Below, one piece after another: positions 38,468 through 59,644 of a DNA stretch of 64,000 nt. Numbering within the stretch: position 1 is the first letter of the stretch; every line of letters starts with the position of its first letter. The notes under the pieces were generated by a model. That model ran no database searches, was not told where the DNA came from, and saw only the letters and a list, made by a program, of their open reading frames with translations. The translations under genes and the position numbers were made by a program. The stretch is from a virus. Lineage: Duplodnaviria; Heunggongvirae; Uroviricota; Caudoviricetes. The stretch is from positions 64,001 to 128,000 of IMG/VR virus record IMGVR_UViG_3300045591_000029; one strand, given 5' to 3'.

Positions 38468-41400
38468 ATGAATAATATATCTGAACAGCTATTACAGGCT
38501 ATGGATATTATTACGGAAGAAAAGGTAAGATAGTTAAAATATGATAAAACTATCCAAGCCACCGTTTATTCTATTGTAGATGTAGATACTGGAGAATACA
38601 AAGTTAGATATAACGGGAATATCTTTTCCGCATTTAGTGAGAATACTAGTAAAAGCTATTCTATTAAAGACGTGGTTTATGTCAAGGTGCCAGAAGGTAA
38701 TTTTTCTAATAAGAAGTTGATTACTTCCTTGGTGACTGCGAAGTCTTTATCTAATGCTTAGTTATCTGATTTAACCAATTCTGTATTTGAAGTATCTCCT
38801 ACTTTTGATGCATTGTATGATGGAGCTTATGACGCTTCACAAAGTTACGGAGTAATTGCGGGAACGCCAGTTGGAGAGATCGGAAGTTCTATTTATATTT
38901 TTCAAAATAGTGAGGAATATGAGTAGAATGGATATCACGGTTTATTCCAATAGTATTCTAATAATTATGAATATATTCGCTTGAAAGCGTCTTTTTTAAC
39001 TTAGTTCCATAATGTCCATAATCAAGGTAATTATGGTATTGAAGTTGAGTTTTATACCAAGGATAATAGTAGTGTAAAATATAGATTAGATCTCTAGAAC
39101 TTTAATGGCAATCCTTATGGATTCTCAGTCTATTCTCCGCAGTAGATTATCCTTAAGGCGCAGAAGAACTATTTAATGGGACTTAAATCTATTAGACTCT
39201 TTGAAGAAGACTTTGTCTATGATAAAATTGTTAAGAATGGCATAGTTACAGATGAAGAGAATAGAACTGTTGCTAATATTTTTGTAAAAGATATTTCCCT
39301 TTAGTATGTTGATATGCAGGATTTAAGTGATACGATTTATTATCTCACGATTTCTGCCCCCAAAGGTATTGCCTTTACGGATAAAGTATCTAGCTTGAAT
39401 TTAGTTGGACGCTTAATTTATAATGGCGAAGATATTATGGATAGCAAGAAATGTGTTTGTCAATGGTATGAGAGAGATTTAAGCGTGGTTGTTGGCAGCG
39501 ATGAATATAGCAAGTCCGCAGGTTTCGGATGGAAGAAGATTGATGGACAGACATCTAGTTCTCTTACTCTTGATGCAACGGATATTCTATATCAATAGAA
39601 GTATAAGCTAGTAGTCGTCTATAATGATAGCATTACTCTAACTGCGGAAATCGCTGTATGGAATCGTAATGCAAGTTATGATTATTCTATTGAGCAAGTT
39701 ACTGATGGTGCTGATATTAAACTACAGATTAGAAATAATGTTGATAGCGAGTCTTTGGTGGGAGATTGGTATTTATCTTATCCAGACAATAGTTACAGCT
39801 CTGTGCCGGAAGGAAAAAAGAAGTCCGAGATTGTCGTAAGTTCTTATTTGCAATACAGTTCTGTGACTTTCTATTGCATGGTGTATAATTCTGCAGGATA
39901 GTTTATTGGAACTTTAGAACATACTATTGTGAATAGCGAAAGCGAAGATGATGTAACTATTAGTTATATCGGTGAAGATTCCTTTAGATATGATGCTAAT
40001 GGCGATATTTCTATTGAAGATGCAGAGAAAGAAAGAACTCTATAGGTTAATTTAGCATGGAAGGAAGGATTCGGAACCTCTTACTTCGTGTCTTGGTTAA
40101 TGAAAGATGCGAATAATAAAGAGTATGAGATTCCCACCTCTAAAGAGCTTGCTTATAGTCCGGATAACTCCATGCTTGAGAATATTTGGGTTGACAAATA
40201 TAATATTTTACACTACAATATTAGATAGAAGTATAGAGTTAATTTCAGTAATAATACAGTTATTGTAAAAATAAGAACAATTACAGAATCTATTTATCTA
40301 TTTAATAAAGAGATTCTTTGTTTGAAAGATGGCGACTAGGGAACCAATGGTACTACTTATATTACCGCAATTCGTCCATGTAATTCAGACGGCGTAAAGT
40401 TAAGTGGACTACAGCCTTTAAGATATAATAATGGATGGACTAATGATATTAGGGTTCGTTGTTATGTTTATAAAGATGGAGAATTGATTAACGGTAATAG
40501 TAAATATTCTATTACCTATAAGTGGTAGGGAACAAACGTTACAGTAGAAAACAAAGAAGTAGTTACTGATTCCGTTGATCGAGTTTTAGTGCGCGGTATA
40601 CCTACGATTTCCGCGGATACCCCTAATGCAGAATTGGCTTTCTATGTGAGAGTTCAAGTTACTATTAGAGACGATAATAGCTCGGTTGATATCTACGCTT
40701 CTTATCCTCTTGATGTTATCGTTGGTTCTACATTAGCGAGTGCTATTGATATTGATACTATTCCGTCTTATATCAAGTATAATTCTTCCGGTCTGACTCC
40801 ATCATTTTATAGTAATGATATTAACTTCTATTATAATGATGTAGCTTATAATGATAACATTACTTCGTTAAACACCAATATCCTTACTATTAAGACAGAT
40901 AATGGTAAGAAATACTTAGAGCCAGCTTCTAGTTTTATCTTTGAGAATATTAAGGATAATGATTAGAGCAATATCGGAGTATTAAATCTTGCTATTCCAA
41001 ATAGTAACGATAGATTAATTCATCCAATTATCATGTATCTCGATACTTATGGTAATGAAGCTATTAATGGCTGGGATGGAACTGCTCTTGATACTGGCGA
41101 TGGAGAGTATGTATTTGCTCCACAAGTTGGTGCAGGAACAAAAGATAGCCAAAATAGATTTACTGGCGTGGTCATGGGTAAAGATAGTGGCCAAGATAAA
41201 GTAGGTTTATATGGTTATCAGGCGGGTGTTAATACTTTCGGTCTAATGGAAGATGGTATCGCGTTCTTCGGAGCTTCTAGTGGAGGCGGCCGCATTGAGA
41301 TTAACGGTAAATCCGGTTCTATCAAAGGCGGCGGTGGAGGAGATAACTCCACTGGTATGACAATCAATTTTGCCGATCTTAATCCTGGCAATAATACTAC

Positions 41401-43681: not shown

Positions 43682-46423
43682 ATGCCAATTAGTATTTATC
43701 CGCCTACTTTATAGAGTACATAGCCTGCATTTTTAGCCACTACACCAGACTATGAAATCAAGTATACTCTATAGAAGGTGACGAGTGCTGAGACTATTAA
43801 ACATATTCAAATTCGAGTAGTTGAATAGCGCTCAAATTCTAGCATTGTAAATACTTCGAAATACCCAGACAATATTATCTATAAGAATGTGGATTTAACT
43901 AAAGAGTCTAGTCCTTATGGAATTAAAATCCTAACTGCGGATTTGCGGAAATCTTGGTCACCGGGCGTGTGTTATAAGATTCAGTTACGCTTTGGATCTA
44001 CTAGCTTTCCTACTGACTTAAGTTCTTTTGCCGCATGGAAGAAAGAATAGATTAACAATCAGACTTTCTCTGAGTGGTCCACTGTCATGATTATTAAAGC
44101 TATCGCGCAACCAGAAATTTATATCGAGAATGCCGGTACTTTAAGAACAGATGTTATTGCTAGTAGGTAGACAGAGGCTAGTTTAACTCCATTATTTGTA
44201 GGAGATTATATTGATAATGCTTCTGAGGAACCGTTGGAGAAATATAAGTTTGATCTATATGATGAAACTGGAACAGATTTAATCGAGTCCTCAGATTGGA
44301 TTCAAGCAGTTAGCGGTAAGAATAACTCTTATCGGTTTAAGACTATGTTGACAAATAACGAGTCTTATAAAGTTTATTTTTCTATTGTAACGCGCAACGG
44401 ATATGAAGCAAGAGTATTCTATGACTTCCAAGCTGTTAAAGTATATTTAGAAGCATTAGAAGGCGTAACAATGCGTATAGATGATACAGATGTCTATTGT
44501 CGCGAAAACGGTTGTATGCGAGTTTATCTAACCGCAAAGAATCCATTAACTGGATGTTATGTACTTACTCGTGCATCTGAGGAGAGTAATTATCAAGTAT
44601 ATGAGGATTTAAAGTATTTTAATTACTTTGAAGAAACTCTTAATGATAGTTTGATTTATACAGATTTTATTATCGAGAGTGGTATCAAATATAAGTATGC
44701 TTTCTAGTATCAAAACTCTCAAGGATTACGGAGCGCACCTTTGCAAGAAAGTGGCTCTCCTATTCCAGCGAGAAGTGTTGACTTTGAATACTCTTATCTA
44801 TATAGAGACGGAGTGTAGCTGCGCTTAAAGTATAACCAAAAACTCAGTAGCTTTAAGCATACGGTACTAGCGAGCAAGCAAGATACCCTCGGAGACCAAT
44901 TCCCGCATTTAGCGAAGAATGGTTATGCTTATTATGCCGAGTTTCCAATTAGTGGTTTAATTAGCTTCTAGATGGATGAAGACTAGACCTTCTTTACTTT
45001 AGGGACAGATGGTTATTATTATAATAATGAGTTGGTAATCCCTAAAGATAAGTTTAGTATGTCTACTGCGGCGAGAGGAGAGATTACAGCTCCTTCTTAT
45101 CTTGCTATTGATACTAATATTACTGATGATAATATTTTTGTAGAGCGTAAGTTTAGAGAGAAAGCTGAATAGTTCCTTAATGACTTTACTTATAAACTCT
45201 ATAAATCTCCTACTGAGGGGAACATTATTGTTGGCTTAATGAATGTATCAATGACACCTAATGCATCTCTAGGGCGCATGATTTTTGAGTTCTCTGCTAC
45301 TGCTTATGAAGTTTTGGAGAATACGCTTGAAAATCTTAATGAGATTGGTATTACGGATGTTGGAGTCTTTAGTAATGAAGTATCTACCGAAGAACAATCC
45401 GCGTTTGGTCAGATTAGTGGTATTTATTCAGGCTGTCCTGAAGGAAATGATATTTATACTTTAATTAAGCAATAGGAAGAGATTGCAGTTGGCGATGGTC
45501 GATATAAGTTGTCTCTTATTAACGTCGATTCCTTCTGGATTGAGAGATATCCAACCATAGACTTTGATGGTAAGATTTACGAGTTAGAAGCAAAGAAAGC
45601 TGAACAAGAGCAAGCTGGAGAAGATACTAAAGAGACAGAGGCTGAACTCACTCGTTGGGCGGCTCTAAAAGAAGCCGCCGGTAATGCTCCATCTTCTGCG
45701 GTTAAACTTACTGTTAATGGAACAGATATTATAGTTGCGCCAAATAGGTTATATAGCGTCAGAGAGGGTGTTAGCTCTTTAAGTATGAAATCTGTTAAAT
45801 ATCCTATTATTGTGAATTATGTCTGCTCTTTAACAAGAGAAAGAAACGATGAAGTTGGCGAAGTAGAATCTATTGATACTTCTCGTATTTGGGGTTAGAT
45901 TTCTGGCGTCTTTAGCGGAACTGATAAAGTTTTGAAGAATTATAAGTATTACTATGGGCCTGGCGAGACTCCATATCGCATCTATAGCGATTCAACTGTG
46001 GAGGAAGATAAGCTAGGTCGTATCTTAGTAGATAATACAAATTATAATGTCTATAAGACTGTCAACCTATACGATATTATAGAAGAAGAAACTCGCAAGC
46101 AGGTAGAGTTTATTTATAATATTCAAGGTGGATTTGAGCAAGATGAAAATGGTAAATGGACGAATGGAATTATTTATTATTCTTTCTCTGATATTACTTC
46201 CTTCGACATTGAAGCAGACCCCCAGACTATCTTATATATTGGTCAAAAGAAAGATGGTAGCGATAAACATCCAGTCATGCTTGGTCCAACGGGCCGATAT
46301 ACTCTTAGCCCGATGGATGGTATGATTAAGTATATTGCTTTATAGAAACCTCAATTTGCGGTTATTAACTACAAATGTTTAACCGCGCAAACAACAATGA
46401 AGTATAGCAAAGAAAGGAGTTAA
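43682..46423 (+). CDS. minor tail/baseplate protein with fibronectin-like segments (recoded)
   Basis: 913-aa frame joining fragments 44234, 45239, 45509 and 45932. Confidence 0.6.
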
Positions 46424-46428
46424 TATTC

Positions 46429-48333
46429 ATGTTTGAGTATCTTAATGACATGGATTTTCTAACCTAGTTAGATAAACTGCATATGCGAGTATAGTATGCA
46501 AAGATTATCCTCCTTTCTTTTAAGGATGAAGAACCCATTAAAGAGATTTAGGGTTCTATCACTAGTGGTAATTTGAGCGTTAATGGTTCTTCCGCAATTA
46601 GAAGAACCATTAACCTTACTATGCTTGCTTCTATTGATAATAGTAATCTTGAGGATATTGATAATGAGATTTCTATTAACAAGAAGATTAAAGTTTTAAT
46701 TGGTTATGATAATCCATTAAAGTCTTATAAGAACTATGGAGATATTATTTGGTTTCCTTGCGGCTTGTTTGTTTTATCCTCTGCTAATATTAGTCGCTCT
46801 ACTAGTGGTTGGAATATTTCTATCACTGGTAAAGATAAGATGTGTCTATTAGACGGAACCGCAGGTGGCACTTTGCCGGCATCAATAACCTTTCATGAAA
46901 GTCTTGTTTAGCTTGATAATGGAGACGTAGAGATTCAATATCCTACTATCTTCCAAATTATTTATGAAGCGGTAAATCACTGGGGTGGAGAAGCTATTGA
47001 GAATATTATCATTACTGACATTGATGAAGAGATTAAGATGTTAGTAAGATATATGGGAGATAAGCCAGTATATTTCTCCAATGACTACTAGAGTTTAAGT
47101 TTTGAAGCGCAAGAAGATTATCCGCATATGTTTAGTTATGGACAAGATGCTGGATATAAGTATACTGACTTTACTTATCCAGGAGAGTTGGTATTAAATG
47201 CGGGAGACACGGTAGTAACTCTATTAGACAAGATTGTTAGCACTCTTGGCAATTATGAATATTTCTATAATATAGATGGTAAGTTCGTATTTCAAGAGAT
47301 TAAGAATTATCTTAATACCGGTAGTCCTCTATTAGAGTTAAGTCCAGAAGACTATGTACGTTCATATAATAATGCAAAGTTTTTATACTCGCTTACCGAT
47401 CTTGACACGACAACCGCGATTACCCGCAATCCTAAGTATGATAATGTGAAGAATGACTTTTATGTTTGGGGTAAGCGTAAGACTTCAACCGGCGTAGAGG
47501 TATCTATCCGTTATCATCTTGCTATTGATGATAAACCAGACATTGATCTAGCTATGTAGAATATGTGGGAAGTAAAGGATAAAAAATCTAATCTTATTGT
47601 TCGCTATGATTTTAATACTCTTGATGAATACAGCGTGGATGGTTATGTAGTTACCTTAGTAGGTACTCCATGCGACGAGTGGAGAGAAGAGCTATACCGT
47701 CGTGCTCTTAATGCTTAGGTATCTAATAGTGTCTATGATAACTATTATGATTCAGAGCTAATTGCGGAGTGGCGTAATTTATATAATCCAATGAACAAGA
47801 ATTGGGATGCTACAAATCATTGGAACCCCGATGTATTTAATGACCCAGGTTCTATTAACTTCTGGCTAGATTTTATAGATACTAGTTCCGCCCTCGGTAA
47901 GTATTCTATTAAGAATATTGGCCGTAGGACTAAAGTCGTTAATAATAATGACATAAAAACCGTATATAATAGCGAAGTTCCTGATGTTGTATTTATTGAA
48001 GGATTAGATTAGGACTTGATTGTTAAATATCAAGGGATTGGTTAGAGATTCTTTATTCTAACCAATGAATACTATGATATGTTTTCAATAAGCACTACTG
48101 GAACTAGTTGCTTTGACCAAATTCGAGAAATGATGTATTAGAACTTATGTTATAATACTACTATTTCTTTAACCTGTTTGCCGAAATATTATATAGAGCC
48201 TAATAATATAATTAGGGTTGAAGATAAAGATAGCAATATCTATGGTAATTATCAAATTACTCAATATTCTCTACCTCTTACTTATAATGGCACTATGAGT
48301 ATTACTGCAACAGAAGTTTTAACACGAGTATAA
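46429..48333 (+). CDS. tail protein (Tal/hub-like) (recoded)
   Basis: 634-aa frame; NLSVNGSSAIRRT and GNYEYFYNIDGKFVFQEIKNY segments typical of phage tail hub proteins. Confidence 0.6.
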
Positions 48334-51659: not shown

Positions 51660-51667
51660 ATAAAAAA

Positions 51668-51710
51668 AAATAGGGGAGAACCTTTTAATTAAGGTTCTCC
51701 CCTATTTTTT
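51668..51710. terminator. bidirectional intrinsic terminator
   Basis: A9-TAGGGGAGAACC-ttttaattaa-GGTTCTCCCCTA-T6 between convergent genes. Confidence 0.85.
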
Positions 51711-51713
51711 GTT

Positions 51714-52163
51714 TTAACGGCAAACTTTGTCTTTAAGATGGTAGTGCGGGATTTCCTCATTAAACCACTTCCAACGAAGATAGTCGTCGAGGAAGATAGC
51801 TATAAGAGCTAATCCGAACCACGCGAATGAGAAAGGAAGACAAATCTGCCCCAATATATTGAAAGGTAAGTTTGAATAGTCCCAAATTCCTAGCTTTAGG
51901 ACTAGATTCAAAATTACGCCGAATACAAATTCAAGTGAGGTAACTATCGCGGCTCCAATAGCCCCTTGTTTAATGATAGACATTTCCCAAGGTATAACCT
52001 CATTTATTTCTCCAATAAGAACGAAACAAAGTCCGCCCAAGAGAAACATTGACCAATGTATCATACCACCACTAATGAAGGTCTTAAACAAGAACTCTAT
52101 AATAAAATAGAGAGAACCTCCAACAGTGAATAAGGTAAGAAACTTATTTAGTTTGGTCTGCAT
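51714..52163 (-). CDS. putative ABC-transporter-permease-like (CmpB/TmpB-type) membrane protein
   Basis: Four TM segments with GGxxYxxIE, HWSMF, WDYSNLPFNILGQIC and W motifs. Confidence 0.65.
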   Translation of the reverse strand: MQTKLNKFLTLFTVGGSLYFIIEFLFKTFISGGMIHWSMFLLGGLCFVLIGEINEVIPWEMSIIKQGAIGAAIVTSLEFVFGVILNLVLKLGIWDYSNLPFNILGQICLPFSFAWFGLALIAIFLDDYLRWKWFNEEIPHYHLKDKVCR

Positions 52164-52809
52164 AATCAAGCTCTACCTGTTCTAGCTCCTCTAAAGAAGC
52201 TGCTCCATAAATAGAGATTTTATACTACTGCATTTGACGATACATTGGATATACAGCCGCAGAGATGGACATAGACAATGCAACAAGATTTTCTAATGTC
52301 CAAGGCTAGCACTCTTCGTGTCGAGCGTGCCATTCCAGAGTTGGAGATTCAATACCTGCCTGAACGGCGATCTGATATTGACTTAAGTTAAGACTAATCT
52401 CAGATTGATCCTCCATTGTAACTCCATATTCTTTTCCATCTGTCCATGTTAATGGATGAGAAGCAAGATACTCTGCGAAAAGTAGCTTGTTCTTCTCTTG
52501 CTTAAGCTCTTTAGCTTCATCTAAACTATAGCGATAAACAAAACTCTGAGTTTCATTATCGAACTTATATAGGTTAGGCGTAACAGTAGATGGAATTTCT
52601 TCAACCTCGATAACGCGAACTGCGTTAGGAGAGTTAATTGTATCAGCTTGGATTAAGACATAATGAGTATCACAATCAGAGCCAATAACCCCAGTGCCTT
52701 CTTCTTCTGAGCAGGCAACGACAATACCATTAGAAGATTGTAGTTTAATGTAACGAAGATTGTCGAGAATATCAACTACAATATTCTCACGATTTAATAA
52801 TACATACAT
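52144..52809 (-). CDS. DUF4376-like tail fibre assembly protein (recoded)
   Basis: Track ORF extends through two TAGs to TAA (221 aa); EDQSEISLNL...WHARHEEC...LEELEQVELDY pattern. Confidence 0.6.
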
Positions 52810-54023
52810 TACTTTATTTCAACTCCTTTGAATAATGAACGAAAATAATTATCCATATCTTGGATAATATAGAAGCTTGAACCTTTAGCGATATGTGCTC
52901 TCCAACCTTGATAAGATTTCTGAATTTCTTCAGTAGGAATTTTACCTTGTTGCCATAGAGCAGCCATTTTACGCAATTTTCTGCGCTAATGCACAATCTT
53001 TTTCTTAAAAGGTATCTAGATTACATGATTTGTAGTAGTTAGATAGAAATTCCATTTAAGATACTTAAATGGAGTACCATGAACCCTATCTTTAGATGCG
53101 ATAGGGGTAATACGCGAGATAGTGGTTTTCTTCTAGTTAAGAGTAAGACCTATATCTTTTAATTTCTTCTCTATCTTAGCTTTACATTCTGCTAAGTATT
53201 TGCTATCGTTACATAGAAGATAAGAGTCATCCATGTAGCGTCCATAATACTTAATATGTAATTCTTCTTTAATGAAATGGTCAACTTCGTTCAAGGCTAG
53301 CAATGCAAACAACTGTGATGTCTGACTTCCTAATCCAAGACTTTTAGCTTCACACTCATAATATTGATGATGCGGTCGGAAAGACTGGATATCCGCAGGT
53401 ATATATTTTCTACCTTTAGCAATATAATACTATTTGCCCGGAATTGGATGCTTATCTTTTGTTAGCTTAAAAGAAAATGTATCAATTAAGTATGAGCATA
53501 ATTCATAGATTTGAGGATCTTTAATAACACGCTTAGCGATTTCTTTAAGAGCCTCATGGTCGATAGAATCAAAGTATTTACGAATATCAATTCGTAAAGT
53601 AAAGAAATCATTTCCTAACCCGTATTCTCTATGAGCCATCTATAAATGTTTCTTTGCTCTTGTTAAAGCAAAATCTATACCTCTATTTTTAAGTGTTGCA
53701 CAGTTATCATAAATAAACTTAGGAGTTAATTCTGGTAATAAGCTCTATTCACATAAAGCATTTTGTACCAGTCTGTCGTTGATATGGCACGCTCTTATAT
53801 CTCGTGGCTTGCCTCGTTCAATGATTGAGAAACAACTAAACACAAGCTACTTGTATTCACAAGCTCGCAAATCAGCTTCTGTTTGTAAGATTGTTTCAAT
53901 TCTATTCTCTTCAAAATTGATTGTACTATCTTTCCATCGAACATTTCGACAAACTCGATAAGAGGAATCATATAATGCGTCAAAACTACAAAAACGCTCG
54001 AAAGATGTCTACTACTAACTCAA
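52809..54023 (-). CDS. DGR reverse transcriptase (404 aa, 10 in-frame TAG)
   Basis: DRLVQ, RGIDFA, IDIRKYFDSIDH, GLGSQTSQ and RYMDD (53226-53237) motifs; TTG start after AAGGAG; adjacent to TR. Confidence 0.92.
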
Positions 54024-54327
54024 CTTCTTTCTCCTTATCATACAGTAATAGCGGTTACTTCGCGAGCTCCGCATCTGTAATCGTATTCATTTATCCGTCG
54101 CAGAGACGAAATAGTCAAGTTCTCCTTAGATGAAAAGGCATCTACCTATAATATACTATTTAATAATATGTTCTATTCCTTCTCCTTCTTAGTCCACAAG
54201 AGTGAACCAATGCATCCAGAATAAACCATAATTAGATGGACAATAATATATTCTGGGGTACTATTCTAGGTGTTGCTCGTCTGCGCTGCTTCGCAGCTTG
54301 ACTTGCAACGTGATAGCTCCATCTAAT

Positions 54328-54427
54328 CCGGCGCGAGGCCATTGCTGTTGTTGTAGTTGTTGTTGTTCGCGTTCCCGTTGTTGTTAACATTGCACACGTT
54401 GTTCGAGTTGTTGTAGTTGCGCGAGCG
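54328..54427 (-). repeat. DGR template repeat (TR)
   Basis: 100 nt, AAC-rich (37 adenines on the coding strand), identical to VR except at adenines. Confidence 0.95.
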
Positions 54428-54459
54428 AAAAATACAGAACTTGACATCTTGTAAAATCA

Positions 54460-54954
54460 TTACCGACCTCTTCTATAACTCTTTGGCTTCTAGTAGGAAT
54501 GCTCGTAGATTAAATAATCTCGATTAACTCTATCCTATAAAGTTTCTTTCATAGCCTTTGTTAAACGAGCAAGATGCTCAAAAGAGCGCCGTTTCTTCTG
54601 GTTAGTCTATGCGTATTCGAAGATACAGAGATCGATTTGACGAAAGATACTGTCGCAATAAGCGATAGCCTAATTCCAATATTTCTTTCGTGCAATTAAA
54701 GTTTCCTAACTATTCAAGTAGATCTCGCTAGCTTGATAGCAGGCGGCATGTATGCCCTTTCCGCATTTGATAATATCTAGCCCGAACGCTTGGAAAGGTT
54801 GTCCCTCTCCAAGCAATCCAGGTTTTTTAATTTGTTTTCCAGATTCGTCAAACTCTCTAGGACGAGTTAAGACTAAAATGTAATTTACCAGTTCGCGTGA
54901 TTTCTAGAGACACTCACGCTTGGATTTATGTCGATCTTTTGTTTTTACAGACAA
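54460..54954 (-). CDS. avd: DGR accessory variability determinant-like protein (164 aa, 6 TAG)
   Basis: TTG start after AAGGAAGG; MSVKTKDRHKS..., basic and helical, located between VR and TR. Confidence 0.7.
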
Positions 54955-55035
54955 AATTAACGCCTTCCTTTCTCATTATTTATATGAGAAAACTGGCTAA
55001 CATTTTAATCTATACTGTCCCACTTTTGAAAGTTT

Positions 55036-56814
55036 TTAATTACCAATGACGAAAGCCGGCGCGAGGCCATAGCTGTTGCTGTAGCTGCCGCGGTTCGCGG
55101 TCCCGTTGCTGTTAACACGGCACACGCGGCTCGAGTTGTTGCAGTAGCGCGAGCGCTCCCATGGATAACCGTAACTACTCGTGGATATATCACCTAAATA
55201 CATGATACGCGTAGCATTACTAGTATAGTAACTATAAGCAAAATTCTTGCCTTGGGTACATTCTGCTTTACTAGTAGAGCTATTAGCAACAGATAATGGA
55301 GAATCAGAATCAAGACCAAATTCTCTTTCTGAAAGTAAGAATACGGTTTCATCATTATAAGTTACATCGCCATTACGAGAACTATTAGTAGATGGACAAG
55401 TGCCTTTTTTAATAGTCTTAATAGAGGCTTTACCGGGAAAAGCGTTATAATAGTTTTGACATAGACTTCTAGCAGTAGAACCAATCCAAACTGCGTTGCT
55501 ACCAAACGCAGTATACTGAGATAAACAGTTTTTAGTCTGGAATGTAACTGTATTATTAGCATCTTGATCTACACCAATAACTCTAATTAAGTGAGTAGTA
55601 GTTCCTAAAACTGCGCTTGAAAGTGTTACAGATTTAGTAGTACCAAGAATAGCACCACCACTACTAGTTTTAATAGACGCGCCACTATGAGATGCAAGAT
55701 AGTTCTTTAATCCGGCAAACCATGCTGCATCAACAGTATCACCATCAGCGCCCCAAGACCAATATTCTGCACTAACAGTAATTGTTTTGTTAGAGGGTGC
55801 AGTATGGTTAGTGCCAGCCGCGACTTTAATCGTAATAGTAGTAGCAGAAACTGGAGTAGAACCATTACCCTTAATAGTAAGAGTATTGCCACTAAGAGAT
55901 AAAGTCAAACCAGAAATACTGGTAGGACTATAACTAATAGCACCATCACCTGCGCGAGTAATAGTAACAGCTACACCGGAACTATAGTTATTACCATTAA
56001 TGGCCACTGTTGTTGGGCTTACATTCAAACTACCTGTTGCTTTATTGATTGTCCAGTTGACATTGATCGCGCTGGTCGTTCCGTCCGCCCAGCGATAATT
56101 GCTTCCTGGTGTAAAGGTAGCAATATAAGTGCCAGCATTAGTTGCAGATGTTGTGTCACCGATAGTCATGTAACTGGTGTTATAGTTATTCCAGTAGCTG
56201 GTGCTACTAACTGACTGCGCGCTTCCAGTATATGTAAGATTACTTTTCCACGTAGGTTTGGCTATAGACTTACGATTGACTGTGACATTAAAAGTCGCAG
56301 TTTGAGTAACTCCATTTTCTGTGTAGCTAATTGTAACTACTTGATTTCCAATAGTTGAAAAAGTTGTTGGAGAACAAGAGTAATCAGTTACAGTTTTAGT
56401 TTGAGAATCGGAATAACTAGCTGTCACTACCATACCCGCGGTAGCAAGAGTATCTCCATACTCATAAGTCAACTTATTGGGTTTAGTAGTTACAGTAATC
56501 GCGGAGAGCCTATGCGTGACTGTGACTGCTAAAGTCGTAGTGCAAGTTTCTCCGCCCTCAGAGTAAGTGATGGTTACGGAAGTAGTACCATCAGCTAAGA
56601 CGCTAGGGGATACAGAATATCCACTAACTTCTGCGGTTGCTAGAACCGCTTGCCCAGTACCATAAGATGCAGTAACGACCATGCCGGCGCTATTGAAGCT
56701 GTCGCCCGCAAGATAGCTGGTCTTAGTAGGCTTAGTGGTGACTTCGATCTTCATAAGAACGATGCCGCTTCCTCCACCTTTTCCGCCTTGCTCAGCTAAA
56801 ATACACTTAGGCAA
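55036..56814 (-). CDS. DGR target: Ig-like-domain adhesin/receptor-binding protein with C-terminal C-type-lectin-like variable domain
   Basis: TTG start after AAGGAGG (592 aa); two TTKPxKxxY...AGMVVTASY Ig-like repeats; C-terminal WERSR..VR..YGLAPAF. Confidence 0.85.
   Translation of the reverse strand: MPKCILAEQGGKGGGSGIVLMKIEVTTKPTKTSYLAGDSFNSAGMVVTASYGTGQAVLATAEVSGYSVSPSVLADGTTSVTITYSEGGETCTTTLAVTVTHRLSAITVTTKPNKLTYEYGDTLATAGMVVTASYSDSQTKTVTDYSCSPTTFSTIGNQVVTISYTENGVTQTATFNVTVNRKSIAKPTWKSNLTYTGSAQSVSSTSYWNNYNTSYMTIGDTTSATNAGTYIATFTPGSNYRWADGTTSAINVNWTINKATGSLNVSPTTVAINGNNYSSGVAVTITRAGDGAISYSPTSISGLTLSLSGNTLTIKGNGSTPVSATTITIKVAAGTNHTAPSNKTITVSAEYWSWGADGDTVDAAWFAGLKNYLASHSGASIKTSSGGAILGTTKSVTLSSAVLGTTTHLIRVIGVDQDANNTVTFQTKNCLSQYTAFGSNAVWIGSTARSLCQNYYNAFPGKASIKTIKKGTCPSTNSSRNGDVTYNDETVFLLSEREFGLDSDSPLSVANSSTSKAECTQGKNFAYSYYTSNATRIMYLGDISTSSYGYPWERSRYCNNSSRVCRVNSNGTANRGSYSNSYGLAPAFVIGN
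55056..55155 (-). repeat. DGR variable repeat (VR)
   Basis: 3' end of the target gene; 16 mismatches to TR, all at TR adenines; shared GC-rich 3' end GGCCTCGCGCCGG. Confidence 0.95.
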
Positions 56815-56869
56815 GATTATAACCTCCTTCGTATCTAGCTCTTTTAAAAATACCAAAAGATTTTCCGAG

Positions 56870-57046
56870 AAAAAGTACACTTTTTTATGGGAAAAATACT
56901 CCCAGAAACTAGATAATAAAAAATTGGGAAAAAGGTATAGAAACCCTTTTCCCTTCAAGTAGGTATCTTACCTTTTCAGATATACATAAAAAACAAGCTA
57001 AGAAAATTATTTATGATTGACCAAAGCCCAGTTAAGTGTACTTTTT
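56870..57046. promoter_or_regulatory. putative invertible segment bounded by 13-bp inverted repeats
   Basis: AAAAAGTACACTT (56870-56882) and AAGTGTACTTTTT (57034-57046); the left site is a palindrome around an asymmetric AC core. Confidence 0.6.
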
Positions 57047-57068
57047 AGAAGATGAAAGGAGAATTAAA

Positions 57069-58354
57069 GTGAGCTTAAAATGTATTTTGCAAGGTCAAGT
57101 AAAAATTACTCCAAATGATTTTGGCCTAGGTACAGAGAATGTTCTATTATGCTTGGATGCGAATGATGCTATATTAAGTGGGTGGTATAGGACAGATAGT
57201 GGCACAGTGAATTTACCTAGTAACCTTAGTACATCTGGAGTTTTATTAGTATCTAGAAGACAAGACAAACGTATATTCCAATAGTATATAGTAATTAACG
57301 GTGGAATAGAGACTGGGACTATGGCGGTACGGACTTCTAGTGGATAGGATGCTATCGTTTGGGACGAATGGGAATTTTTTAATCCTCTTATGAATCAGGG
57401 AGTTGAATATAAGACTATTGAGAGATATCAATCGGCATCATTATATAAAAAAGTAGATGGGGTATTCTTAAATGGCGCCCCGAAGGAGAATCTAATTGGA
57501 AGGCTGTCGCTGAATATATTGGGGCTGTTCGGTATGACGCTAATTAGGAATTATCTGCATCCTCAAAATAGCAAGTACGGAAAAATATGAGTGCGTAGGG
57601 TGGATCATATCTTCATACAGCTCTTTCAAAAATAGGGTGGTATTGTATTATTACTACTACTTCTGACGCTGCTGGATTATTTACTATATATCATCATTAT
57701 GGCAGTGGAGGACCATCATCGCTTAAACTTTTAGTGACTTTTGATTATCACTCTCCTGCTTTAAAGTGTATAGAATGCACTGGAGAAAAATATAATTCAC
57801 AAATCACTAATGTTCGTATGATAAAAACAAGTGATGACAAATATTGTCTTGATGTTTTTTACAATATTAACTATGACCATGATGTAGCTATTGATTTTAT
57901 CAATACTGGCCGATACGAAGTAATTTTACAAGAACCAATATATCTATCGGAGACAGATGATTTATCTGAAGGAGAGACTCTTTTAACTCCAATGGAGTAT
58001 CTCAATCCTCCCATGGAGCTGGGCGTAGAGTATCGCACTACGGAGAGGTATCTTGGTAAGCCGGTGTATGTCAAACTGATAAATTGCGGGAACTTACCCA
58101 ATGGCACAACAAAAGAAGTTGCCCATGGAATTACAAATCTTGATTTTATGGTAGGCGCCCAGGCAATCGCTTCCAATTCAACTAGTGGCTTTAATGGGCA
58201 CACATATCTGCCGGAAATTTATAACGGGTCCTTGACAGATAGATGGACAGACTATCTTGCTGGTATAGACACTAAAAACATCCGCATATTCTGCGGCGGA
58301 TTGGCTGGGTGTCTGGTTTATGTCACATTCAAATATACTAAAACCACAGACTGA
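57069..58354 (+). CDS. second tail fibre/receptor-binding protein, interrupted by a -1 frameshift near 57447-57462
   Basis: GTG start after AAAGGAG; duplicated NPxMxxGVEYxTxERY modules; downstream half lies in the -1 frame. Confidence 0.6.
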
Positions 58355-58366
58355 GGAGGAAACACC

Positions 58367-58966
58367 ATGAAAGTTATCAAGTATCAGCTGTGCACCGAGA
58401 TTAATCACGGCACGGAGGATGAGCCAAATATCGAGCAGGTTTTCTCCGCTGTCACGCTAGGATGGAGCGAGGCAAACGAGACCATCGCCAAGGCCGAAGC
58501 CTACAATGGCGAATATACTGTTGAAGAAGAACTAGATAATCGTCCATTCGAAGAGATTCAAGCTGAAAAATTATCTAATCTCTCAGCAGCTTGCAATCAA
58601 ATCATCGTTGCTGGCATGGATGTAGAAACAACAGAGGGCGTAGAACACTTTAGCCTCGAAGAGACAGACCAAATTAACTTAACGACAGCATTATCCGCAA
58701 TTGAACAAGGAGCCAAGGGATATCCCTACCATGCAGATAAGAAGTTATGCCGTATGTTTACAGCAGTAGAACTCAAGGCAATCGCCGAAAAAGCTACCGC
58801 GCATAAACTATACCACACGACTCTTTGTAATCACCTCTTAATCTTAACAAGACGTGCAACTACAACTGCGGAATTAGATAAAATTACTTATTCTGCGGAT
58901 TGCCTTCCTCCTGATCTCGTGGAGAACATGAAGAAGATTCTAGTCGCGGCGGGGATTACTGAATAA
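58367..58966 (+). CDS. DUF4376-like tail fibre assembly protein
   Basis: AEKLSNLSAACNQII...FSLEETDQINL...YHADKKLC...AELDKITY. Confidence 0.65.
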   Translation: MKVIKYQLCTEINHGTEDEPNIEQVFSAVTLGWSEANETIAKAEAYNGEYTVEEELDNRPFEEIQAEKLSNLSAACNQIIVAGMDVETTEGVEHFSLEETDQINLTTALSAIEQGAKGYPYHADKKLCRMFTAVELKAIAEKATAHKLYHTTLCNHLLILTRRATTTAELDKITYSADCLPPDLVENMKKILVAAGITE

Positions 58967-59038
58967 TTTTACCAAAAAATTTGGCAAAGTTGTTAAATCA
59001 ACTTTGCCAAATTTTCATTATATAATGAGGTGATAAAG

Positions 59039-59644
<606 letters not shown>

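Follow-up and report, generated by a model that had tools for sequence, protein, structure and literature searches.

The reverse transcriptase (RT) gene of a DGR cassette in this gut phage opens with three consecutive in-frame TAG codons. Our preferred account is that these are probably ordinary glutamine codons whose clustering arose by drift within one lineage, rather than a conserved switch; it is an account in which we infer both the timing of suppression and the standard code of the host. The dependence of the RT and of the Avd-like accessory gene on a suppressor tRNA is, on this evidence, real, and it is shared by about half of the genes of the phage.

RT Gene and Start Codon

The genome is a single 138.8-kb viral contig (40% G+C, rated 95% complete), and the window, the whole stretch of 64,000 nucleotides analyzed here, corresponds to its bases 64001–128000; coordinates below are those of the window unless marked as genome. 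Read directly on the minus strand, positions 54023–54009 are TTG AGT TAG TAG TAG, codons 1–5 of the RT gene (52809–54023, minus strand, 404 aa), exactly the opening described in an earlier note on this DNA, and the TTG lies 7 nt after the Shine-Dalgarno sequence AAGGAG (54036–54031, minus strand). With TAG read through, the frame stays open for 404 codons, contains no TAA or TGA, and ends at the TAA at 52811–52809. Its ten in-frame TAGs occupy codons 3, 4, 5, 59, 93, 128, 198, 297, 336, and 346, such that 10 of the 22 Gln codons (45%) are TAG. The product carries YMDD and GxxxSQ (LGSQTSQ) motifs and matches Pfam RVT_1 (9.6e-16) and PHROG 1423 (6.7e-84). The best solved relative is PDB 8ub7 (1.3e-12), a 328-aa chain titled only “Reverse transcriptase,” which we take to be the Bordetella DGR RT (bRT); residues 9–162 of the phage protein align with residues 10–154 of this chain.

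Several features identify TTG 54023 as the true start of the RT, with the TAGs at codons 3–5. Relatives from several lineages begin with TTG or ATG at equal spacing from the same ribosome-binding site. This site is part of a longer element, CATGATAAGGAG (54031–54042, minus strand), which is conserved at the DNA level in relatives at 60–98% identity (L001–L039, L052–L098) and occupies different reading frames in different clades, and so is non-coding. In the 3′ direction, no other canonical in-frame start occurs before codon 52, which lies within the conserved RT core, and residue 9 already aligns with residue 10 of 8ub7. A downstream start is thereby ruled out, and the TTG start proposed earlier holds. 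In the 5′ direction, read-through of TAG leaves the frame uninterrupted as far as ATG 54074, and initiation there or at ATG 54041 would turn the TAGs into codons 20–22 or 9–11, respectively. We regard this as highly improbable: both ATGs lack a ribosome-binding site, the stretch before the TTG shows non-synonymous variation among 97% identical relatives, TGA TAA stops fall in that frame at CATGATAAGGAG in clades C and D (77% identity), and the tail length counted from the TTG agrees with that of the solved DGR RT. As a separate observation, CATGATAAGGAG is longer than a plain Shine-Dalgarno sequence and may be part of a DGR spacer RNA.

Assignment of TAG to Glutamine

A simple ORF map of the genome contains 336 in-frame TAGs, distributed over 90 of 169 ORFs. 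Four lines of sequence evidence indicate that TAG encodes Gln in this phage. When RTs of seven lineages are aligned, TAG occupies the invariant Gln columns of YKQLVF, LVQNALCE, HLQ.AH, IQIPF, and VHQRRK, and in the clade at 60% identity (clade G) both Gln of the GSQ.SQ motif are TAG. Among 18 distinct RTs that are 96–98% identical, TAG alternates with CAG at codons 59, 128, 234, and 368 and with CAA at codon 359. The CAG share of Gln codons is 26% in TAG-bearing genes versus 59% in TAG-free genes, and CAG and TAG together make up 0.54 of Gln codons in the former versus 0.59 for CAG in the latter; TAG has taken the place of CAG one for one. Finally, the 31 tRNA genes include one tRNA(CUA), the predicted suppressor, at genome 49146–49236 (minus strand; Rfam tRNA, 54.5 bits), about 14.8 kb before the start of the window.

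These observations also bear on a reading in which the TAGs are true stops and the RT is either a dead gene or begins further downstream. Translation with table 11 does break the RT frame into pieces, as that reading would have it. It is nevertheless almost certainly wrong, given a frame of 404 codons that lacks TAA and TGA, TAGs at invariant Gln positions, a next canonical start (codon 52) that falls within the conserved core, a suppressor tRNA in the genome, and differences between the template and variable repeats (see below) at adenines only, consistent with past retrohoming activity.

The tRNA(CUA) is itself atypical. At 91 nt it has the class-II shape, including a long variable arm, and it combines a U1.U72 mismatch with G73. 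In its D-arm it most resembles the phage's own tRNA-Leu(CAA), yet TAG aligns with Gln throughout. We found no phage-encoded release factor, GlnRS, or GluRS in the genome. The tRNA array also holds a full-length tmRNA gene (genome about 45841–46181, minus strand; L051:11842-12182; RF00023, 76 bits), a notable presence in a phage whose genes hold hundreds of in-frame stops, and ARAGORN predicts two tRNAs whose eight-membered anticodon loops contain anticodons of four bases, taaa and tgtt, at genome c[40913..40986] and c[47955..48029].

TAGs are unevenly distributed along the genome. The structural module has 11.5 per 1000 codons, as against 5.6 for the leftmost 64 kb (0–64 kb) and 2.4 for the right end. 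The DGR operon, at 14.5 per 1000 codons, is near the structural module in this respect. The fourth-base context of in-frame TAGs shows no bias, with T next in 18.9% of cases versus a 19.9% baseline.

DGR Cassette and Its Neighbors

The target gene (55036–56814, minus strand, 592 aa) encodes Big_3 repeats followed by a C-terminal DUF6273, starts with TTG after GAAGGAGG, and contains no TAG. Its 3′ end holds the variable repeat (VR; 55053–55155, minus strand), which aligns with a template repeat (TR; 54325–54427, minus strand) over about 100 nt, with 17 of 17 mismatches at TR adenines. An RT with YMDD and GxxxSQ motifs, together with an adenine-only TR/VR pair whose VR lies at the 3′ end of the target, identifies the cassette as a DGR. 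Between the target and the TR lies an Avd-like accessory gene (54460–54954, minus strand, 164 aa) with a TTG start and six TAGs; its location and length suit an Avd. Its product has no sequence match in Pfam, PHROG, or PDB; the N terminus, MSVK.(K/V/A)DRH, is conserved across all clades, and the model is a helical bundle (pLDDT 89.5) that matches 2gsc and 2rld best among PDB structures (TM 0.69–0.79, with weak E values of about 0.03–0.1). The title of 2rld is “S23 ribosomal protein family,” presumably the family that includes Avd.

Downstream of the RT is a 221-aa gene (52144–52809, minus strand) with two TAGs and no family match. Its ATG overlaps the RT stop (TAATG, 52807–52813), and the two genes are probably co-translated; premature termination within the RT could therefore also reduce translation of this gene. 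The DGR genes are not separated by a strong terminator, and a strong hairpin terminator is found at 51665–51710. A nucleotide search with the cassette against deposited phage genomes returned a single trivial match. A serine DNA invertase gene (59030–59644, plus strand; PHROG 125, 7e-51) with six TAGs lies 2 kb from the target start.

All three DGR genes start with TTG, so a weak start is not peculiar to the genes that were supposed to be gated. The earlier note had also set an Avd gene with a TTG start and six TAGs against a target with none, and proposed that hypermutation is restricted to the late lytic phase while the target remains expressible. The counts are correct for this genome, but the asymmetry is reversed in relatives, where the target may carry 4–8 TAGs and Avd 0–1. 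Clade A, to which this genome belongs, has 0–1 TAG in the target, 4–6 in Avd, and 8–11 in the RT (up to 12 in metagenome members). The corresponding numbers are 1–4, 3–4, and 8 in clade B; 6–8, 1, and 3–6 in clade D; 4, 1, and 7 in clade E; and 4, 0–1, and 19 in clade G. A TAG-poor target with TAG-rich accessories is thus confined to clade A and, trivially, to the almost TAG-free cassettes L021 and L032; the TAG-carrying cassettes of relatives have 1–8 TAGs in the target and, outside clade B, 0–1 in Avd. The target of this phage has few Gln codons (11), so few TAGs are expected there in any case.

RT Tail across Relatives

Relatives of the cassette were recovered at 50 IMG/VR loci and 54 metagenome loci. 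The triple TAG is limited to the 96–98% identical clade A, in which every member whose RT start is recorded, whether in IMG/VR or in metagenomes, opens with TTG, AGT or AAT, and TAG TAG TAG (AAT is found in L058, the opening being otherwise identical). Clade B, at 86–87% RT identity, has a double TAG, TTG AAT TAG TAG followed by AAA or GAA, such that the third tail codon encodes Lys or Glu. Five other lineages have CAA in the tail, among them the 77% identity clades and the L080/L088 group (70–71%), which start with TTG, ATG, or ATT. These include TAG-rich RTs: those of the L080 clade carry 7–8 TAGs, and the partial RT of L088 has 11 TAG to 3 CAA/CAG. The tails of L030/L031 (68%), L083 (66%), and L032/L086 (62%) contain no Gln, and the RTs carry 7, 0, and 0–1 TAGs, respectively. 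Only the 60% clade, in which 19 of 29 RT Gln codons are TAG, has early TAGs again, and these arose independently, at codons 2 and 5 (GTG TAG GAC TCC TAG). Of the seven lineages with a tail Gln, two use TAG, versus 2.5 predicted by a rough sum of overall TAG fractions. The anticipated conservation or enrichment of N-terminal TAGs in homologous RTs is therefore not seen: the triple is confined to near-identical genomes, and most other lineages use CAA.

The tail itself reads SQQQTS, NQQKTS, NQQETS, QDQNNT, EENQNT, SEINQDTA, ESQSS, ENLG, or KHTSA in different lineages, and the RT N terminus before the conserved core is, as judged by these sequences, short, variable, and unconstrained. Replication slippage was considered as the origin of the triple and rejected: about 45 clade A/B sequences show no length polymorphism, and the clade B difference is a same-length substitution (AAA/GAA).

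The tail could instead owe its codons to something other than decoding, with the choice serving an A/T-rich, unstructured initiation region after the weak TTG or a DGR spacer RNA 3′ of the TR. Conservation of the non-coding CATGATAAGGAG just upstream, across clades at 60–98% identity, would fit such a role, as would the TTG starts of all three genes. However, CAA, the codon found in other clades, would be just as A/T-rich, and a search of the region 52000–59000 against Rfam found no RNA family. We consider this explanation very unlikely.

Chance and the Position of TAGs in Other Genes

The triple is the only one among the 336 in-frame TAGs, which also include three double runs. Placing the TAGs of each gene at random among all its codons gives 0.11 expected triples per genome, and placing them at random among the Gln codons of each gene gives 0.47. 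For the three tail Gln codons of the RT, the probability of all being TAG is 0.078. The run is real and not clearly in excess of chance.

With starts chosen by ribosome-binding site, N-terminal enrichment of TAG is absent genome-wide: the first 5 codons hold 8 TAGs versus 8.7 expected, and the first 10 hold 14 versus 18. Crowding into early codons is likewise not seen in genes of this genome with one or two TAGs. In genes with at least three TAGs, the RT left out, the first 10 codons hold 5 TAGs versus 9.85 expected. This depletion elsewhere makes the RT an outlier, though a single one.

A Consequence of Recoding or a Gate

We favor the following account of the triple. The phage tRNA(CUA) would read the TAGs as Gln, giving a Met-Ser-Gln-Gln-Gln-Thr-Ser tail before the first conserved RT helix. 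C-to-T changes would have converted CAG to TAG by drift in about half of the genes of the lineage, and a polar, Gln-rich tail in a TAG-tolerant gene (45% of Gln as TAG) could then have become all-TAG in one recent clade. The RT (10 TAGs) and Avd (6 TAGs) would be completed only after the suppressor tRNA outcompetes host RF1, as a consequence of recoding and not as its purpose, and they would share this dependence with some 85 further genes besides those for the portal, terminase, and tape measure. In the absence of suppression, RT synthesis would stop after two residues. By arithmetic, the yield of full-length RT scales as s^10 for a per-TAG read-through s, wherever the TAGs sit, and the triple adds no steepness beyond that of the total; the early position mainly sets how soon translation aborts, not the yield.

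Three observations sit poorly with drift. Despite about 13% protein divergence, TAG TAG at codons 3–4 is kept in all clade A and B sequences in which the RT start is recorded, whereas other TAG sites have mostly turned over; early TAGs are otherwise depleted in TAG-rich genes, with the RT as the outlier; and the 60% lineage has acquired its own TAGs at codons 2 and 5. Consecutive rare codons near a start can depress translation more than internal ones, which makes a position-specific effect physically plausible. These points would fit an early-abort gate maintained by selection in clades A and B only, in which a dipeptide stop persists until the suppressor tRNA is abundant. Such a gate would tighten the off-state, avoid truncated RT fragments, and possibly restrain the coupled downstream gene, whose ATG overlaps the RT stop; the lack of a phage release factor, which makes competition with RF1 likely, is in keeping with it. 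We nevertheless consider a gate of this kind unlikely. It is absent from five other TAG-recoded lineages, most relatives have a TAG-bearing target, and 0.47 triples per genome are expected by chance. Retention of the clade A tail TAGs in clade B (2 of 3, as against about 4–5 of 15 other cassette TAGs; binomial p about 0.2) is not significantly above background, and the RT needs seven more read-through events regardless. A more elaborate version, in which the clade A/B TAG-TAG(-TAG) is a selected translational fuse on the RT and its overlapping gene, tied to the class-II-shaped tRNA and limiting retrohoming to a late window, seems to us quite unlikely.

The three codons are thus most likely Gln codons clustered by drift. 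The earlier note was right to expect that full-length RT needs amber suppression; the genome encodes a tRNA(CUA) and no release factor. Its further proposal, that the triple is a dedicated gate confining hypermutation to late infection, is not supported by comparison, and the outcome in homologs is one that the note itself named as refuting: there is no TAG enrichment at this position in homologs and none genome-wide, and the asymmetry between target and accessories is not conserved.

Discussion

Two general points follow from the comparison with relatives. Where a Gln-rich tail is unconstrained, drift can produce TAG runs in code-15 phages, and a pattern seen in a single genome, here a TAG-free target beside TAG-rich accessories, can look designed and then dissolve. 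If a gate were nonetheless real, it would be the first case of a genetic-code switch setting the timing of mutagenesis by a DGR and would offer a compact natural part for suppressor-dependent control. In part of the related phage population the DGR is probably broken; RT frames are shortened to 165, 322, and 379 codons in L038, L078, and L091, respectively.

The cassette resembles the DGR of Bordetella phage BPP-1 (mtd-avd-TR-brt) in its order, target-VR, avd, TR, spacer, and RT, and in its adenine-specific mismatches. It differs from BPP-1 in a target built of Big_3 and DUF6273, in an Avd-like protein of 164 aa that has no sequence match, and in being written in code 15. Mtd has a different fold from the Big_3/DUF6273 target.

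Amber codons in DGR RT genes are already on record for Zeta crAss-like phages, which belong to a different phage order and host phylum; the passages of that paper available to us do not mention clustered N-terminal TAGs (PMC12386605). For TAG-to-Gln (code 15) gut phages, a late-gene recoding model has been proposed in which TAG-bearing genes are made only after a code switch; that preprint does not mention reverse transcriptase, DGRs, N-terminal position, or consecutive stops (Borges et al., bioRxiv 10.1101/2021.08.26.457843). Our genome agrees with this model in having its own suppressor tRNA, with many early or replication-side genes TAG-free and structural or late genes TAG-rich, and departs from it in that high-copy virion genes are also TAG-free (10.1101/2021.08.26.457843).

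A distant relative is Phass-1 (OQ749652), a gut phage of 136 kb that is TAG-recoded and predicted to infect Clostridia (PMC10607447); the major capsid proteins of the two phages are 51% identical. Strong Shine-Dalgarno use, together with this kinship, suggests a Clostridia host here as well. With Phass-1 and the proposed Phassvirus group the genome shares a size of about 136–139 kb, a human gut origin, large tRNA arrays with tRNA-SUP-CTA, and TAG as Gln in virion genes (PMC10607447). Phass-1 has three suppressor tRNAs and no reported DGR (PMC10607447), whereas this genome has one suppressor tRNA and a DGR. It adds to the known systems a Phass-like lineage of TAG-recoded phages that carry a DGR and are common in metagenomes of the human gut.
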